From an uncultured delta proteobacterium (GTDB lineage: Bacteria > Desulfobacterota > Binatia > UBA9968), in assembly GCA_963760795.1 (NCBI GenBank), contig CAVXEP010000020.1, positions 64,001 through 128,000 of the forward strand: 64,000 nt of DNA, in the 5' to 3' direction. Positions 4,512 to 62,640 of this stretch are shown one piece after another. A model generated the notes under the pieces. It was given only the letters and a program-made list of their open reading frames with translations, did not search any database and was not told the origin of the DNA. The position numbers were made by a program, and so were the translations under genes. Position 1 is the first letter of the stretch. The number at the start of each line of letters is the position of its first letter.

Positions 4512-5381
4512 ATGAATCGAATCACCACCGCCGGCCGTCTGCTGTTGGCCCTTTTTTGGTTGGCGACATCGGCCGCGGCCCAGGCTCAAGACCTTGAGAA
4601 ACTGCCCTTCGTGCCGACACCGCAGATCGTCGTCGACGAGATGCTGAAAATGGCCGGCGTCACCGACAAAGACTTCGTCGTCGACTTGGGCTCCGGCGAT
4701 GGCCGTATGATCATCACCGCGGCGCGCAGCTTCAAAGCCAACGGTCTCGGCGTCGACATCGATGCCAAACTCGTCGATCTCGCCACCAGCCACGCGCGCA
4801 ACGAAGCCGTCAGCGACCGCGCCAAGTTCATCGAGCAAGATATGTTCAAGGCCGACATCAGCAAAGCCACGGTGGTGACGCTCTATGTCCTGCCCGATTT
4901 CATGGAAAAGCTACGGCCCAAACTTCTGCGCGAGTTGAAACCCGGCGCGCGTATCGTCGCCCATGATTATTATATGAGCGAGTGGCCTCCCGATCGCTTC
5001 GCGGAAATGAACGTGCCGGAGAAAAAAGCCGCCAACGGAACGGAGAAGGCCTATCTCTACCTGTGGACCGTTCCGGCAACCGTCCAAGGCGACTGGCGCA
5101 TCAATTGGGATTTCGGCGATGGCAAACCGCAGTTGATCGTCCTGGCATTCAATCAAAGATACCAAGTGATCAATGCTTCCGCCGCCAGCAAAGACGGCGA
5201 GATGAAGATCGCCAACGCCACGCTCAAAGGCGACGATATCGACTTTTTCCTCACCGTCGGCGCGAACAATTACCGCTTCACCGGCAAAGTTCAGGGCGAT
5301 CGCATGAGCGGCATTGCCGTCACCGGCGCCGGTGGCAAACCGATCCCGTGGAGCGCCGCCAAGATGCCGCCGGAAAAGTGA
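4512..5381 (+). CDS. Class I SAM-dependent methyltransferase with signal peptide and C-terminal beta domain
   Basis: PFVPTP, VVDLGSGDGR (motif I), GVDID, ATVVTLY, LKPGARIVAHDY; N-terminal h-region ending AQA. Confidence 0.85.
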   Translation: MNRITTAGRLLLALFWLATSAAAQAQDLEKLPFVPTPQIVVDEMLKMAGVTDKDFVVDLGSGDGRMIITAARSFKANGLGVDIDAKLVDLATSHARNEAVSDRAKFIEQDMFKADISKATVVTLYVLPDFMEKLRPKLLRELKPGARIVAHDYYMSEWPPDRFAEMNVPEKKAANGTEKAYLYLWTVPATVQGDWRINWDFGDGKPQLIVLAFNQRYQVINASAASKDGEMKIANATLKGDDIDFFLTVGANNYRFTGKVQGDRMSGIAVTGAGGKPIPWSAAKMPPEK

Positions 5382-56569: not shown

Positions 56570-58102
56570 ATGGCTACCAAAGAAACCAACCTAAGTCGCC
56601 GGCGTTTTCTGCAACACAGTACCACGCTCAGCCTCGGGGCTCTGATCGGGCCAGCCCTTGGAGGGAATGCGCTCGCGGCGTCCAGAGAGCGGGTCGTCAT
56701 CTATCAAGGCGTCAGCCTCGACTCGCTCCATCCCTACGGCTACAGCGGCGGCGGCATCAACGGCATCTGGCTCCATCTGATCGAGCCGCTGATCGTCATG
56801 GACTACACCCGGCAAAAATATGTCGGCGTGCTCGCCGACTCGTGGGAGTTCCAAGGACGACGCTGGATATTCCAGCTCAGAAAAAACATCCGCTTTCACA
56901 ACGGCGCGCCGTTCACATCGAAAGACGTGGCCTATTCGATCGAGCGCATGAAAACCGACAAGCGCAGCCTTCAGGGCGGCGACATCTTGGAGCTAGAAGT
57001 TGAAACGCCCGACGATTTCACCGTGGTTTTCAACACCAAGCAGCCACTCTCGCTGCTGCTCGACCGCCTGGACACGCGCTACATCATCAGCAAAGCCGCT
57101 GCGGAAAAATACGGCGACCAAGCCGACAACTACGCCATCGGCACCGGCCCCTATAAATTTGTCAGCTGGCAGCGCGGCGGCAACCTGGTCTTGACGCGCA
57201 ACGACGACTATTGGGGCGCCAAGGCGGAGATCAAGGAAGTCATCTTGAGAGGCGTAAAAGAAGAGGCAGCGCGGGTCGCCGGCCTGCTGTCAGGCCAGGC
57301 CGACGTGGTCAGCAACCTGCCCATCGAAGAAATCGATCGAGTAGCGAAACATCCGCGCGTCCGGGTCGAGAAGATTCCCGGCTTTCGCATGTATTTCGTC
57401 GCCATGAACTTCGCCCATAAACCTTTCGACAACAAGTTGGTGCGCCAAGCGATCAACCACGCCATCGATCCGGCGCCGATGATGAAACATGTCTTTTCCG
57501 GCAACGGCCAGGTGCTCAACGGCCCGCTGGCGGCGAACATGACCGGCTTCGACCCGGCGATGAAACGCTATGCCCACGATCCCAAGAAAGCCCGCGAGCT
57601 GCTCGCCCAGGCCGGCTATCCAAACGGCTTCGAAATCAAGCTGCATTTCTCGCCCGACCGTCATCTCAAGGGCCGAGAAGTCTGTGAAGTGATCGGCGAT
57701 CAGTTGGCAAAAGTCGGCATCAAAATCGAATTGGTCGGCCAGGAGTACGCCGTCTACTGGGGCAGGGATGGCGTCAACGGCGGCAAGCTGCCCTTCTACT
57801 ACGCCGGCCGCACCGCCTCCGACGCCGACACTTTCTACGATCAATACTTTCACACCGGCATCACCAAGCGCATCGGCTACAGCAACCCGGAGGCCGACAA
57901 ACTCATCGAAGAGCAACAGCGCACCGCCGATCAGAAAAAACGCGTGACGATCTTGCAGCAAGCTGGCCGCCTGATCATGGAAGACGCGCCCTTCGTGCCC
58001 CTCTACACCCTATCGGAAATTTACGGCGTGGCGAAAAATGTCATCTGGAAAGGCACACCCGACAACCGTATCCTCGCTGCGGAGATGAAGATCAGAGGGT
58101 GA
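56570..58102 (+). CDS. Tat-exported ABC substrate-binding protein, family 5 (peptide/nickel)
   Basis: SRRRFLQ Tat motif; LRKNIRFHNG, IGTGPYKF, PFDNKLVRQAINHAID. Confidence 0.92.
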   Translation: MATKETNLSRRRFLQHSTTLSLGALIGPALGGNALAASRERVVIYQGVSLDSLHPYGYSGGGINGIWLHLIEPLIVMDYTRQKYVGVLADSWEFQGRRWIFQLRKNIRFHNGAPFTSKDVAYSIERMKTDKRSLQGGDILELEVETPDDFTVVFNTKQPLSLLLDRLDTRYIISKAAAEKYGDQADNYAIGTGPYKFVSWQRGGNLVLTRNDDYWGAKAEIKEVILRGVKEEAARVAGLLSGQADVVSNLPIEEIDRVAKHPRVRVEKIPGFRMYFVAMNFAHKPFDNKLVRQAINHAIDPAPMMKHVFSGNGQVLNGPLAANMTGFDPAMKRYAHDPKKARELLAQAGYPNGFEIKLHFSPDRHLKGREVCEVIGDQLAKVGIKIELVGQEYAVYWGRDGVNGGKLPFYYAGRTASDADTFYDQYFHTGITKRIGYSNPEADKLIEEQQRTADQKKRVTILQQAGRLIMEDAPFVPLYTLSEIYGVAKNVIWKGTPDNRILAAEMKIRG

Positions 58103-58119: not shown

Positions 58120-58192
58120 TGGAGTGATGGAGTTCTGGAGTACTGGAGGGAGGAACCGTCTGACCCATCACTCCAACACTCCATTACTCCAA
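58120..58192. repeat. 8-bp periodic (tggagtNN)n repeat with an inverted copy (NNactcca)n
   Basis: tggagtga tggagttc tggagtac tggag ... catcactccaacactccattactccaa between convergent genes. Confidence 0.8.
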
Positions 58193-59680
58193 CCTAAGCA
58201 TTTGTCCCAACGCGAGGCCGAACGGCGCGGCGTGAACGCCGTACTGGCTAAAGTCATTGGCGAATGCGCACAGCGCCCAGTGCGCCGCGTCGCGATACTT
58301 GGCGTCCTTCGTCGCTTGAGCCAAATGAGAGAAAGAACGAAGCCGCGGTGCCGTTCTGTTCGATCAAAGTTAACCGAAGTCGGAGCGAAGCCGAATCCGG
58401 CGTGCAAATATCGTAGAAACCGCCGGCCGGGTTTTTCAGTTCTGATAAAATGAACGCCGCCAACCGTCGCGCCCGATCCACGTATGTCACCATCTCCCGT
58501 CACTTGGTAGGCGCGCAACAACGCGCTGCCCATCTGCGCTTGATCCTGCAGCAGCCCTGGCACATGCGCCGCGCCGTCGAAGTAGTGAAACATCCCGCCG
58601 CCATCGCTGCGGCAGTTCTGCCAGAGAAACTCCAGCGCGGCGAGCCCTCGCTCGCGGTAAGCCGGTTGGTCTAATAACACCGCAGCATCGAGATACGCCG
58701 CGCTGGCAACCCCGTTCGCGTCGGTGTAAATGCAGCGATCGATGATCGTGAAGAATTCCTCGCCATCGACGGCCGGCGGTTCATAACGCAACCAATCTTC
58801 GCAGCCGTGGAAAGTTCCGCTCGCCGGATCGAAAAGCCTGGCATCCAAGTACTCAATAATCTCCTCAGCCATGCGCCGGTATTCCGCCCGCTGAGTGATA
58901 CGAAATACAGACAAGCAATTGGCCAACAGCCCGGCCTCTTCCAACAGCAATTTTTCCCGGTGCGGATGGCTCCAGTCCGGGTTGGAAGAAGTGCGAAAGT
59001 AGGCGCCGCCTTGCTGATCGTAAAGCTCACCTGCGCGCATGCGCTCAAGAGTCAAACAAACCTGATCGAGATATTGCGTGTCGTCGGTCGCTTGATACCG
59101 CGCCAGCAAAAAATCATTAACTTGGGGATGGATAAATTTCTGCCCACGATCGTAACCGCCGTAGGAACGGTCCGCCAGCGCCATTACGCTCGCGGTGATC
59201 TCCGAAAGATTCGTTGCCAACTCCGCCTCATCCAACTGTCGCGCCGGCTCAGGCGTCGACTCTTCCGGTAGCTTGAGCCGCGGCACGAAGCTCCTCTTTG
59301 CGCTGCTGGTAGCTCATGTACACATCGATGAGCAATTCTTTGAACTGATCCGTCGGCAAATAATTTACGGCCGCGAGCAACTGCCCAGCGGGCGTCATGA
59401 AGGCGATGGTCGGCCAGCCGTTCAAGTTGTAACGCGCATCGACGTCGGGCCGCTGGGCATACTCGACCCGCAGCGGAATGAAGTAAGCATTCAAGAGTGC
59501 GATGTTTTCAGTCTCAGAAAACGCTTGCTCATCCATACGCTGGCAGAACCGGCACCAGAACGCCGACAAGTAAAGCATAACAGGTTTGTCCTCGGCGTGG
59601 GCCGCGCGGAAGGCCGCGTCGCCCCATTCATGCCAGGGGATGATATGAGCTTGGTTGGGAAGCGGTGAGAAACGGATCAC
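58184..59680 (-). CDS. Thioredoxin-domain (DUF255)/YyaL-SSP411 family protein, about three frameshifts (near 59275, 58487, 58330)
   Basis: PWHEWG..AF..A..EDKP, WCRFC..M, RPDVD.RY..GWPT; D..YGG, LYDQ.GG.YFR, PH.EK.L, LQDQA, GGFYD; manual C-terminus ...ALGQMLRLE*. Confidence 0.8.
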
Positions 59681-59959: not shown

Positions 59960-61237
59960 ATGCAGTTGACCCTTGCAGTCCATCCAATCACCGACATTCA
60001 ATTCGGCACGCGCTTGTCGCTCGACGGCAGCGCGCTTACGGTCGATGGCGAGGAATTGCGCCGCTTGGTGTTGGAAGATGCGGCCATCGATAGCGTCGCT
60101 TTCGACATCGTCCGTCCCGGCGAGAGCTGCCGCGCCGGGCCGATCTTCGATGTCGTCGAGCCGCGCGCTAAAGCCGACGGCGGCAGCGACTTTCCCGGCA
60201 TCATTGGCGCGCCGACTACCGCGGGGATGGGAACGACTCATGTACTCGCCGGCGCGGCGGTCTCGATCCTCGCCGAAATGTCCCCCGACCCGTCGCGCAG
60301 CGCCACCGGACGGGTGTTGGAGATGAGCGGCAGCGCCACCGCCGGCAGCGCATATTCAAAACTTTGTCATCTCTTGGTGGTACCGCAGACAAAATCAGGA
60401 TTGCCGCGCTCGGCGGTGTTAAAAGCCTACCGCGTCGCCAGCGTCAAAGTCGCCGTGCGTCTAGCCCGCGCCGCGCTTGCGCAGGCACCGGCGTCCACAC
60501 AGACGTTTGAGCCCATCGGCGCCGAAGACAAGAGCCGCGAAGGGTTGTCCCGGGTCGTTTATATCGGGCAGATTTTTTCGCGCCAGCGCAAACCGGCGGT
60601 GGACGAGCCGATTATTTATGGAACCAATACCGACGGCATGCTGCCGGTAATTTTACATCCCGACGAATGGCTCGATGGCGCGCTGGTGCCGTCGCTCAAC
60701 TCCTGGTTTGGCGGCACGGAGACTTATTTTTATCAAAATCACCCGGTGGTTCTCGATCTCTACCGGCGCCACCACGCGCGCGAGATAAACTTTGTCGGCA
60801 CCGTGGCCACCGTCGCCGGCAACGACAATGTCGACCGGGTAAGGCAGTGCCACGCCGCGGCGAATTTAGCCAAGTGGAACCTGCGCGCCGACGGCGCCGT
60901 GATGACCAAGTACGGCGGCGGCTTGCCCCACGCCGACCTGTCGGAGACCGCGCGCTTGTTGGAACATATGGGCATCAAAACCGCCGTCATGGTTTCCGAC
61001 GTGGCGCGCGACCGGCGCGTCGAATCGGCGCTCTTGTTCAACGTCCCTGAAGTCAACGCCATCGTCTACAACGGCGGCAACGGCACCGAATATGAAATTC
61101 CCAAAGCCGCCCGCGTCATCGCCGCCAAACCGGAACTGGCCGCGCTGCTTGCCGGACCCATGACGATAGATGCCAACAACATCATCGGCGTCACCAACCA
61201 GCAGGGCGCGTCGCGAATGAAATCGTTAGTCTATTGA
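59960..61237 (+). CDS. Glycine/sarcosine/betaine reductase component B proprotein-like (GrdE/GrdG/GrdI family)
   Basis: DIQFG, RPGES.R..PIFDVVEPR.K, FPG, THVL.GAAV, LHPDEWLDGA, YQNHP..DLY..H..EINF.G, GIKT, G.TN. Confidence 0.88.
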   Translation: MQLTLAVHPITDIQFGTRLSLDGSALTVDGEELRRLVLEDAAIDSVAFDIVRPGESCRAGPIFDVVEPRAKADGGSDFPGIIGAPTTAGMGTTHVLAGAAVSILAEMSPDPSRSATGRVLEMSGSATAGSAYSKLCHLLVVPQTKSGLPRSAVLKAYRVASVKVAVRLARAALAQAPASTQTFEPIGAEDKSREGLSRVVYIGQIFSRQRKPAVDEPIIYGTNTDGMLPVILHPDEWLDGALVPSLNSWFGGTETYFYQNHPVVLDLYRRHHAREINFVGTVATVAGNDNVDRVRQCHAAANLAKWNLRADGAVMTKYGGGLPHADLSETARLLEHMGIKTAVMVSDVARDRRVESALLFNVPEVNAIVYNGGNGTEYEIPKAARVIAAKPELAALLAGPMTIDANNIIGVTNQQGASRMKSLVY

Positions 61238-61301
61238 AGAAAACGCGAGGCATGAGTAGAAATCCGAACTCGCGCTTCATGCCTGTATGAAGGAGCTAAG
61301 T

Positions 61302-62585
61302 ATGCGCATCGTTTACTACGTCAATCAATTTTTCGGCGGCATCGGCGCGGAAGAACATGCCGGCGCGCCACTGGAATTTCGCGACGGCGCATTGGGGCCA
61401 GCGAAGTTGTTCGAACAGCTCATGGGCGAAGATACGACGGTAACCATGACAATCGTCTGCGGTGACAATCATGCCGTCGAACATCAAGACCAGGTAACCG
61501 CGGCGGTGTTGGAGAAGGTTCGCGCCACCGGCGCGGATCTCTTCGCCGCCGGTCCCTGCTTCGATGCCGGCCGTTACGGCATGGCCGCCGGCGCAATCTG
61601 CAGCGCCATACAGAGCGAGTTGGGGATTCCCGCGATCACCGCGATGCACGTGGAGAATCCCGGTGTCGATCTTTTCCGCGAGCAGCTTCACATCGTCGAC
61701 TCGGGGAACAGTATCGCCAAGATGCGCGATATCATCGCCACCATGGCAAAGCTCGGCAAAAAACTCGTCGCCAAGCAACCCATCGGGCTGCCGGCCGAGG
61801 AAGGCTATATCAGCCGCGGCCTGCTGCGCGATCAACTCGGCGACAAGACCGCGGCCACGCGCATGATCGATATGCTCATAGCCAAAATGAACGGCGAAAA
61901 GTTCGATTCCGAAATGCTGCCGAACGCGTTCGCGCCCGTGCCGATGCCGGCGCGGATTAAAGACATGTCGAAAGCCAAGCTGATGGTTATCACCGACGGC
62001 GGGCTGGTGCCCAAGGGGAATCCCGACAAGATCGAAGGCACTGCGGCGACTCGTTGGGGCGCCTATAACATCGAAGGCAGCGATGATTTACGCAGTGAGG
62101 ACTACGAAGTCTCGCACGGCGGCTACGATACGCGATTCGTCCAGGACGATCCCGACCGTTTGGTACCCCTCGACGCCCTGCGCGAGCTGGAAAAGAGCGG
62201 CGTCATCGGCAAACTGCACGAGGAGTTTCTCTCCACCTGCGGCCGTTCCAATCCGCTCTCGAACACCCGCCGACTGGGACGGGAAATGGTGGAAAAAATC
62301 AAGCGCGACGGCGTCGACGCGGTGATCCTCACGTCAACTTGAGGCACCAGCACTCGCAGCGGCGCTGCGATCACCACCGAACTCGAAAAGGCCGGCATCC
62401 CGGTCGTGCAAATCACCTCCGCGCTGCCGATCGCCAAAATGGTCGGCTCCAACCGCGTCGTTTTAGGCACTGGAATTGTCCATGTGACTGGCGACGCCAA
62501 GTTACCGCTGAAGGATGAAAAAGAGCTGCGCCGCAAGCTCGTCCAACAAGCCCTCGACGCGTTGCAGTCGAATGAGAAACAGTAG
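61302..62585 (+). CDS. grdB: Glycine/sarcosine/betaine reductase selenoprotein B-like (Sec at TGA 62340-62342)
   Basis: MRIVYYVNQFFGGIG, CGDN, AGP.F.AGRYG, ENPG, TDGGLVPKGNPD, HGGYD, DPDRLVPLD, VDAVILTST-UGA-GTSTRSGA...EKAGIPVV...VGSNR; 80 in-frame codons follow the UGA before TAG. Confidence 0.9.
62354..62370 (+). promoter_or_regulatory. Bacterial SECIS-like hairpin
   Basis: TCGCAGC-GGC-GCTGCGA; the apical loop starts with G, 18 nt after the UGA. Confidence 0.75.
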
Positions 62586-62640
62586 CAGGCGGCTGTAAAA
62601 CTCACATCTTCGGCGCGTTCCCAATGACAAGAAGACTTTT

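Follow-up and report, generated by a model that had tools for sequence, protein, structure and literature searches.

A 64,000-nucleotide stretch of DNA from an uncultured bacterium of the class Binatia (GenBank assembly GCA_963760795.1, contig CAVXEP010000020.1, positions 64,001 to 128,000; hereafter, the window) carries at 61302..62587 on the forward strand a gene of the glycine reductase GrdB family, in which both cysteines of the UxxCxxC motif that begins with selenocysteine (Sec, U) are replaced by serines. Judged from the sequence, this is a genuine Sec-encoding gene for a glycine-reductase-type protein B subunit, and comparison across homologues supports the Ser/Ser motif as a real, clade-defining feature under purifying selection. 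The product is probably a functional Sec-containing protein B of a glycine reductase (Grd)- or fluoroacetate reductase (Far)-type system that would operate with a GrdE-like partner and be linked to selenoprotein A (GrdA), independently of a Schiff base and on an X-CH2-COO- substrate other than glycine. A sequence-only reading of the window had previously proposed that the Cys-to-Ser conversion was genuine and matched by compensation in an RNA hairpin, and that it left a lone Sec with a different mechanism or substrate.

The likely start codon is ATG 61302, located 7 nt past an AAGGAG sequence, and orthologues begin correspondingly with MRIV or MKIV. With TGA read as Sec, the frame is open from an alternative ATG at 61287 to 62587, ending in the stop codon TAG at 62585-62587; the product has 427 residues (start 61302) or 432 residues (start 61287), and the residue numbering of the protein (P0001), which is counted from 61287, places Sec at U352. 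The translation around this residue is ...VILTST-U-GTSTRSGAAITTE.... On re-reading, the letters, coordinates and hairpin of the earlier reading all proved correct: 62340-62366 is TGA GGC ACC AGC ACT CGC AGC GGC GCT (U-G-T-S-T-R-S-G-A), and the next codon is GCG. An ungapped alignment of 112 loci (A2; 100 distinct rows) has TGA in all 112 rows at the column of the predicted Sec codon (62340..62342, +). Glycine-reductase GrdB has Cys at the two positions occupied here by AGC Ser codons, namely +3 (62349..62351, +), which lies outside the hairpin stem, and +6 (62358..62360, +), which contributes all three bases to its 5′ arm. The +3 Ser is encoded by AGC in 47 and by AGT in one of 48 Ser/Ser clade genes, and by TCN in other clades (L072, L104, L134-L136).

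The window protein matches Pfam PF07355 (GRDB) over its full length (7e-132, 440 bits; cut-off 22) and passes the NCBIfam subfamily profile TIGR01918 (473 bits; cut-off 65.45). It scores below the cut-offs of the more specific profiles for GrdB (equivalog TIGR01917, 429 bits; cut-off 602.2), GrdF (NF040794, 484 bits; cut-off 800) and GrdH (NF040795, 439 bits; cut-off 775). The TIGR01917 cut-off was passed by 13 of 16 loci with the canonical motif and by 0 of 15 with a variant motif. By-eye comparison with the GrdB and GrdF motifs that Nobu et al. (2022) give in the Methods section of PMC9751293 found that the window protein matches neither. For GrdB, the mismatches are GAE for GGE, GPCFDAGRYG for GPxF[NF]AGRYG, SHGGYDT for AHGGxD, RLVPLD for RV[IL]PxD and TCGRSNPL for TxGNxTxV. 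A search of PDB sequences with the window protein returned no relative at E <= 0.01. An AlphaFold2 model built from a 49-row alignment (predicted local distance difference test score 92.6; predicted template modelling score 0.86) places Sec in a loop between strand 345-349 and helix 353-368.

RNAalifold consensus, pair counts and codon invariance identify a candidate selenocysteine insertion sequence (SECIS) minihelix at 62355..62369 (+), which comprises a 6-bp stem, CGCAGC/GCUGCG, and a GGC loop. The 5′ arm spans 62355-62360 (CGCAGC), the loop 62361-62363 (GGC) and the 3′ arm 62364-62369 (GCTGCG). The stem begins 12 nt past the UGA, and a seventh pair is possible between U62354 and A62370. 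Across the 112-locus alignment, RNAalifold returned a single 6-bp stem with a GGN loop, both loop G residues being invariant. Stem pairing was observed in 96.6% of 700 cells, compared with 83.7% in shuffled alignments, and 0 of 500 shuffles scored as high; when the stem was slid by -3 to +3 columns, 17–63% of cells were paired.

Within the second AGC codon, A62358 pairs with T62366 of the GCT codon. The pair at alignment columns 25 and 33, which joins base 1 of the +6 codon to base 3 of the +8 Ala codon, is formed in 100 of 100 distinct rows, and the earlier statement that the stem is intact therefore stands. Among these rows the pair is A-U in 53, U-A in 42, U-G in 3 and G-C in 2. The adjacent pair 24-34, between base 3 of the Arg codon and base 1 of the +9 codon, is C-G in 59 rows, U-A in 39, A-U in one and unpaired in one. 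Codons on the two arms are coupled correspondingly: Cys UGC occurs with GCA, Ser AGC with GCU, and Gly GGN with GCC or UCC. One row carries GGA at +6 (alignment A2 columns 25-27; 62358-62360), compensated by UCC.

The +6 codon has G at base 2 in 100 of 100 rows and C at base 3 in 97 of 100, and these two bases would be near-invariant because they pair in the stem. Such pairing would confine the codon to NGC (C, S, G or R), and the residues observed at +6 are indeed C, S and G. Among 48 distinct clade genes, the mean codon entropy over 173 conserved degenerate codon columns is 1.21 bits, and zero entropy is confined to CGC357, AGC358, GCT360 and GCG361, precisely the codons of the stem. Taken from the aligned sequences, these patterns support preservation of the stem through compensating change, under constraint at the RNA level.

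Independent stem swaps are few, about five, and the shuffle figures consequently overstate independence. Tree contrasts for pair 25-33 gave 1–3 independent A/U swaps, all concordant but too few for significance, and those for pair 24-34 numbered 5–6, with four concordant, none discordant and one unchanged (p = 0.125). The A-U/U-A covariation anticipated by the sequence-only reading is thus evident in the row counts, although it reflects a small number of independent events. Folding energy of 62335-62400 was uninformative by itself (z = -0.12; 86 of 200 shuffles folded equally well), and a permissive Rfam scan of 62250-62500 returned chance-level matches only and no SECIS family. Zhang and Gladyshev reportedly described the bacterial SECIS in 2005 as a stem-loop shortly 3′ of the UGA with a G in its apical loop. 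The window hairpin has this stem position and loop G. Its best explanation is a SECIS that serves readthrough of the UGA, and binding of SelB is predicted.

The U-G-T-S-T-R-S-G-A motif is unchanged in 52 of 112 aligned homologous loci, and in full the clade motif reads U-G-T-S-T-R-S-G-A-A-I. GrdB-like genes are present in 37 of 41 related genomes, and TST-U-GTSTRSGAAI is retained in all 29 best orthologous loci from 28 of these genomes, at 69–94% identity and across three families of the order. In a GTDB scan of one genome per species, of which the best 80 of 591 relatives were kept, the Ser/Ser motif was found in 21 of the 80. Their hosts are Binatia and seven metagenome-assembled genomes (MAGs) of Dehalococcoidia; other host MAGs carry the label Thermodesulfobacteriota or Deltaproteobacteria.

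At least 120 metagenome contigs contain an exact match to the 32-nt pattern that combines the motif and its stem. Logan contigs from three soil DNA runs of three studies (X1, X4 and X6) span 62340-62369, as does a 246-base contig from the RNA-library run X15; between these assembled contigs, as distinct from raw reads, and the window, no differing letter is listed within 62337-62572. The RNA runs contain small shares of the sampled words (0.09–0.14). Summed contig depth in the soil runs peaks sharply over 62331-62377, at 69.7 compared with approximately 10 in X1, and at 47.5 in RNA run X15; the peak likely reflects many paralogues and species that share these ~40 bases almost exactly.

Two maximum-likelihood trees were built under LG+G4 with Shimodaira–Hasegawa-like approximate likelihood ratio test (SH-aLRT) support: an unrooted quick search over 109 GrdB-like proteins, and a tree of 116 proteins to which FarB sequences were added and from which ten motif columns were removed. 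All 51 full-length Ser/Ser rows fall on one side of a branch with SH-aLRT values of 99 in the first tree and 99.9 in the second. Tabulating the +3 and +6 residues of homologues with UGA readthrough, the check that the earlier reading had suggested, thus recovered a UxxSxxS clade. From sequence comparison, the Ser/Ser branch is a distinct conserved subfamily of Binatia, several Dehalococcoidia and many soil metagenome contigs.

Loci L056 (Sec codon deleted), L109 (partial, without the motif region) and L006-L014 (other genes) were dropped before counting; L072, L097 and L110, with open reading frames (ORFs) shorter than 380 residues, were excluded from the trees and cysteine tables. The counts include the ortholog row L027 (genome G004, flagged unpublished), and no claim depends on this row alone. 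In L056 (VBKX01000192.1, ~5010-5035), a 22-nt deletion in one MAG removes the IILTST-U codons and shifts the frame, creating by chance a TGC before the motif that is not a Cys homologue.

Across several clades of the sampled loci, +3 is C, S, G or D and +6 is C, S or G. Ser(+3)/Cys(+6) clades, from Rokubacteria, Methylomirabilia, Anaerolineales, Syntrophales and Lachnospiraceae, neighbour the Ser/Ser clade, and Cys/Ser and Gly/Ser clades are placed in the opposite half of the tree, which requires a minimum of three changes at +3 and five at +6. The source genome (G000) alone encodes five GrdB-like paralogues, each with one in-frame TGA, whose motifs are UGTSTRSG (two copies), UGTCSRSG, UGTGTRSG and UGTCTRSG, with Ser at +6 in all five. 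The UGTCTRSG paralogue (G000:C4:155454-156735) and its partner (C4:156798-157977) each match in two pieces in different frames, and a further GrdE-like gene (G000 C7:96546-97725) is likewise in two frames; these are either degraded copies or products of assembly indels.

UxxCxxC, which the sequence-only reading ascribed to characterised protein B selenoproteins, is therefore not a family constant: on the aligned sequences, most sampled selenoprotein B diversity lacks one or both cysteines. In the available part of PMC6778437, UxxCxxC is given as the motif of GrdB, GrdF and GrdH, attributed to Wagner 1999, with a proposed role in protecting Sec from oxidation, and a paralogue without it is called a likely pseudogene. 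The accessible text of PMC13188914 gives the UxxCxxC motif, enters GrdB as UxxC and proposes an interaction of GrdA with UxxCxxC. The term 'UxxSxxS' was not found in the literature searched, nor did any paper among the matches listed join Binatia or Binatota with a Grd term.

Just upstream of the GrdB-family gene, at 59960..61237 (+), lies the gene of its predicted partner, a GrdE-family 'protein B' alpha/beta-type subunit of 425 residues (Pfam PF09338, 1.4e-73). Its best NCBIfam matches are GrdG (181 bits; cut-off 780) and FarE (NF053623, 148.9 bits; cut-off 675). A partner was found in 101 of 112 loci examined and adjoins 43 of 51 full-length clade loci; the other eight mostly end too near the gene to contain one. 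Among 91 partner sequences, all 19 that accompany canonical GrdB have both cysteines of the canonical SGN-C-VSA-C site and none of the other 72 does; the window partner has N247 and G251 at these columns. In the clade, V243 and S245 of the partner are invariant (43 of 43). Judging by these alignments, only the glycine-reductase GrdB clade pairs UxxCxxC with a partner that has the pyruvoyl-precursor cysteines.

The source genome (6.58 Mb, 57% G+C, 35 contigs, 89% complete) encodes a Sec decoding set of tRNA-Sec, SelB, SelD (itself with a TGA) and SelA; selD, with its in-frame TGA, selB and selA are clustered on one contig (G000:C11:1948-7514). It also contains one grdA gene, with a TGA, adjoining grdC; GrdA scores 179.7 bits (cut-off 130) and GrdC 536.8 bits (cut-off 450). 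GrdA, always with a TGA, was found in 34 of 41 related genomes and in all five single-chromosome genomes that contain the clade (two Binatia and three Dehalococcoidia). Gene order connects the Ser/Ser pair with grdA and grdC: at L075, a Dehalococcoidia locus, grdA and grdC (577 bits) are followed by the divergent GrdE-like and Ser/Ser genes, and the gene immediately upstream of the pair in two Binatia genomes, G025 and G029, is grdA.

In the available part of PMC10838667, the fluoroacetate reductase FarB of Cloacibacillus porcorum MFA1 and other Synergistota is described as lacking CxxC. Its partner FarE is said there to lack two processing cysteines, hence to be no proprotein, and is likened to betaine GrdI; the pages available further describe FarEB as feeding a shared GrdA, from an operon that includes farA (an antiporter) and farC (a radical S-adenosylmethionine protein). 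The absence of CxxC is thus a recurring, already published state in the family, and this loss alone implies no new mechanism. Whether the motif had been characterised before accordingly has a divided answer: no paper was found on UxxSxxS itself, but the CxxC-less state is published for FarB, at least in the consulted portion of PMC10838667. The FarE cut-off was passed in 12 of 201 Synergistota genomes, true FarE scoring 694–937 bits. The FarB genes beside bona fide FarE read UGTSSRCGAVM (L134-L136) or UGTSSRGGSMI (L137-L139), and their stem is again compensated; the Lachnospiraceae loci L087, L098, L102, L104 and L112 share both FarB motif forms.

FarB and FarE resemble the window pair in combining a GrdB-family selenoprotein with an adjoining GrdE-family partner, in having Ser at +3 and in an incomplete or absent CxxC. 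FarE lacks the two processing cysteines, as does the window partner, and FarB falls in the same half of the tree as the window protein, where +3 is Ser. However, FarB forms a separate clade, with Cys or Gly at +6 in contrast with Ser in the window. Neither a major facilitator superfamily antiporter nor a radical S-adenosylmethionine protein was found among the 10 scanned ORFs of window 50-64 kb or among conserved neighbours, and the hosts are gut Synergistota for FarEB and soil Binatia and Dehalococcoidia here. FarEB was rejected as the identity of the window pair, with the partner, at 148.9 bits, lying far below the FarE cut-off of 675.

Betaine GrdH/GrdI of Peptoclostridium acidaminophilum is likewise comparable, as a selenoprotein B whose partner is not a proprotein according to the accessible section of PMC10838667, and as a system whose substrate carries a leaving group for which no Schiff base is required. 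It differs in that UxxCxxC is reported for GrdH (PMC6778437 in the part available, citing Wagner 1999). The window protein scores 439 bits against a GrdH cut-off of 775 that no sampled locus reached, so that the likeness is by description only. With glycine reductase GrdB/GrdE of Clostridium sticklandii and P. acidaminophilum, the window system shares the fold family, the Sec position, a SECIS at the same codons and GrdA and GrdC in the genome. Yet GrdB has UGTCTRCGATM where the window protein has UGTSTRSGAAI, canonical GrdE has the SGN-C-VSA-C site that the window partner lacks, and canonical loci place grdA between grdE and grdB, which is not the arrangement in the window. Moreover, in the Binatia system GrdD was not found, Cys91 is gained and the Cys at the A101 column is lost. 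Homology with D-proline reductase PrdB (TIGR04483) spans residues 224-428 (89 bits; cut-off 300), and PrdB shares the Sec-containing C-terminal domain, but it is a short protein, independent of GrdA, that uses a Sec/Cys pair.

These comparisons suggest a reaction scheme for the pair. As the partner lacks the Cys for a pyruvoyl group, in the manner of betaine GrdI and FarE, the substrate would probably not be bound as a Schiff base, and would probably be an X-CH2-COO- compound with a good leaving group rather than glycine. From its place at the N-terminus of helix 353-368, the U352 selenolate would attack the α-carbon, and the carboxymethyl group would then move to GrdA and next to GrdC. For such chemistry the two post-Sec cysteines may be dispensable, and the change from Cys to Ser, UGC to AGC, would have been matched by GCA to GCU in the opposite Ala codon. 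The different substrate proposed by the sequence-only reading is favoured by the sub-cut-off GrdB, GrdF and GrdH scores, the failed motifs and the partner without site cysteines; its new mechanism, argued from cysteine loss alone, is undercut by the FarB precedent.

Several observations weigh against this proposal. GrdD (component C alpha, NF040747) was not found in the 89% complete source genome, where the best match scored 24.5 bits against a cut-off of 350; it was over the cut-off in 0 of 41 related genomes and found in none of the five complete clade genomes (L049, L051, L062, L075 and L084). On this result the downstream path would not be the textbook one, and these lineages seem to lack the half of the textbook complex that forms acetyl phosphate. 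Neighbouring genes vary by locus (a family-5 binding protein, NMT1/SsuA-like binding proteins, an amidohydrolase, unknown genes) and give no hint of a substrate. The partner retains an invariant Ser245 two residues ahead of the canonical pyruvoyl-cysteine column, and clade-specific cysteines (C91 of protein B; C297 and C57 of the partner) could stand in for those lost. The RNA-library contig over the site is no proof of transcription, as such libraries can contain DNA. Furthermore, the tree derives from a quick, unrooted LG+G4 search, and sampling was biased to relatives of the query, so that the proportions are not family-wide frequencies.

A possible though somewhat doubtful alternative is that Sec is not lone and that a resolving thiol has relocated to Cys91 of protein B, to C297 or C57 of the partner or to a DUF255 protein, with ordinary protein B chemistry retained. 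Cys91 (TGC, 61557..61559, +) lies in a GP-C-F loop after strand 85-88. All 51 clade rows but none of the 58 others have Cys at this position, whereas the A101 column, ten residues past it, has Cys in none of the 51 clade rows and in 56 of the 58 others. The clade also retains C58 (in CGD) and C105. Within GPxFxAGRYGxAC the cysteine appears to have moved, from GP-A-F...A-C almost everywhere else to GP-C-F...A-A in the Ser/Ser clade; this gain and loss amount to a single event on the tree, however, and thus give relocation no statistical support. The AlphaFold2 model places C91 in the loop between strand 85-88 and helix 95-112, which bears A101 and C105, and this strand-loop-helix element resembles that of Sec. 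The partner has Cys at position 297 in 86% of clade rows, compared with 0% elsewhere, and an intact, CxxC-bearing DUF255 gene stands beside 7 of 22 clade loci compared, but the gene is absent at most loci and frameshifted in the window. The earlier claim of a lone Sec unable to form a selenenyl-sulfide is called into question by the clade-specific Cys91 and partner C297.

Most pyruvoyl enzymes form their pyruvoyl group by serinolysis. The pair could accordingly still be an amine (glycine- or sarcosine-like) reductase acting through a Schiff base, with a pyruvoyl group derived from partner Ser245. This residue is invariant (43 of 43), stands two residues ahead of the canonical Cys column and occupies the same loop after an invariant DGA; the top NCBIfam matches of the pair are, moreover, sarcosine GrdF and GrdG. 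Even so, the pair scores far below the cut-offs of both (484 vs 800 and 181 vs 780 bits), the residue preceding S245 varies (P, T, C or I), and S245 aligns opposite a Gly in the canonical site. Both the GrdB and the GrdF motifs in the Methods section of PMC9751293 are also absent, and FarE and GrdI, the closest characterised relatives in which these cysteines are missing, undergo no processing according to the available part of PMC10838667. Schiff-base catalysis by the window pair is therefore improbable.

A stand-alone redox protein, such as a selenium peroxidase or thiol oxidoreductase uncoupled from GrdA and GrdC, is a considerably weaker candidate. A title in the reference list of PMC3091704 ascribes peroxidase activity to GrdB, and the failure to find GrdD would agree with such uncoupling. 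Nevertheless, a GrdE-like partner adjoins 43 of 51 full-length clade loci, synteny with grdA and grdC extends over two phyla, and a peroxidase would be expected to retain its resolving thiol, all of which render this role very unlikely. A fault of sequencing or assembly, or the drift of Cys codons to AGC in a decaying pseudogene, can practically be dismissed on the evidence of contigs, as the earlier reading had argued. AGC is one base from TGC, and frame-split genes occur nearby (DUF255) and elsewhere in the assembly (the C4 paralogue and its partner). Even so, an identical motif is shared by 52 loci of many genomes, at least 120 metagenome contigs and soil contigs of three independent studies; the frame is open and conserved past the UGA, the stem is compensated and its codons are invariant.

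Upstream of the pair, the divergent gene for a DUF255/thioredoxin-like protein with a WCRFCQ site (58168..59680, -) is split over at least two frames, with the N-terminal thioredoxin domain at 59680-59249 and the middle part at 59286-58168. Its match to the intact copy of L045 ends at approximately residue 400 of 500, and the split gene is either a pseudogene or the product of assembly indel errors. Next to it, a family-5 ATP-binding cassette substrate-binding protein is encoded at 56570..58102 (+), and such a gene also neighbours the orthologous loci L045 and L046. Neighbourhood clustering over the compared loci revealed no consistent transporter or enzyme, and several of the clusters probably represent antisense ORFs in a GC-rich genome. 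Genes for NMT1/SsuA-family binding proteins recur by the second Ser/Ser paralogue type (L044, L050, L055 and L124:8358-9476) and beside grdA in the source genome, a possible hint at a sulfonate-like or related substrate.

A broader and more tentative proposal, rather unlikely to hold, is that soil Binatia and Dehalococcoidia possess a reworked, undescribed Grd-like system whose protein B has neither a pyruvoyl group nor CxxC, with the relocated C91 or a dedicated DUF255 thioredoxin as thiol partner of Sec, and with GrdA and GrdC but no GrdD. If so, the carboxymethyl or acetyl unit would exit by a route other than acetyl phosphate, for example coenzyme A, and the system would act on an abundant soil X-CH2-COO- compound, for example a betaine or a sulfonium-, sulfo- or halo-acetate. 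This would amount to a new selenium-dependent C-X cleavage outside the strictly anaerobic Stickland fermenters. The idea of a 'lone Sec' is in itself not new, given the FarB precedent.

For the family as a whole, a SECIS embedded in the coding sequence would limit the amino acids that can be explored near the active site, since a +6 codon held to NGC can yield C, S or G. Genome annotation takes UxxCxxC as diagnostic, whereas most of the sampled family diversity lacks one or both of its cysteines. Given its conservation, its wide occurrence in soil metagenomes and its linkage to grdA and grdC, the Ser/Ser clade may represent an uncharacterised selenium-dependent reaction in abundant uncultured soil bacteria.

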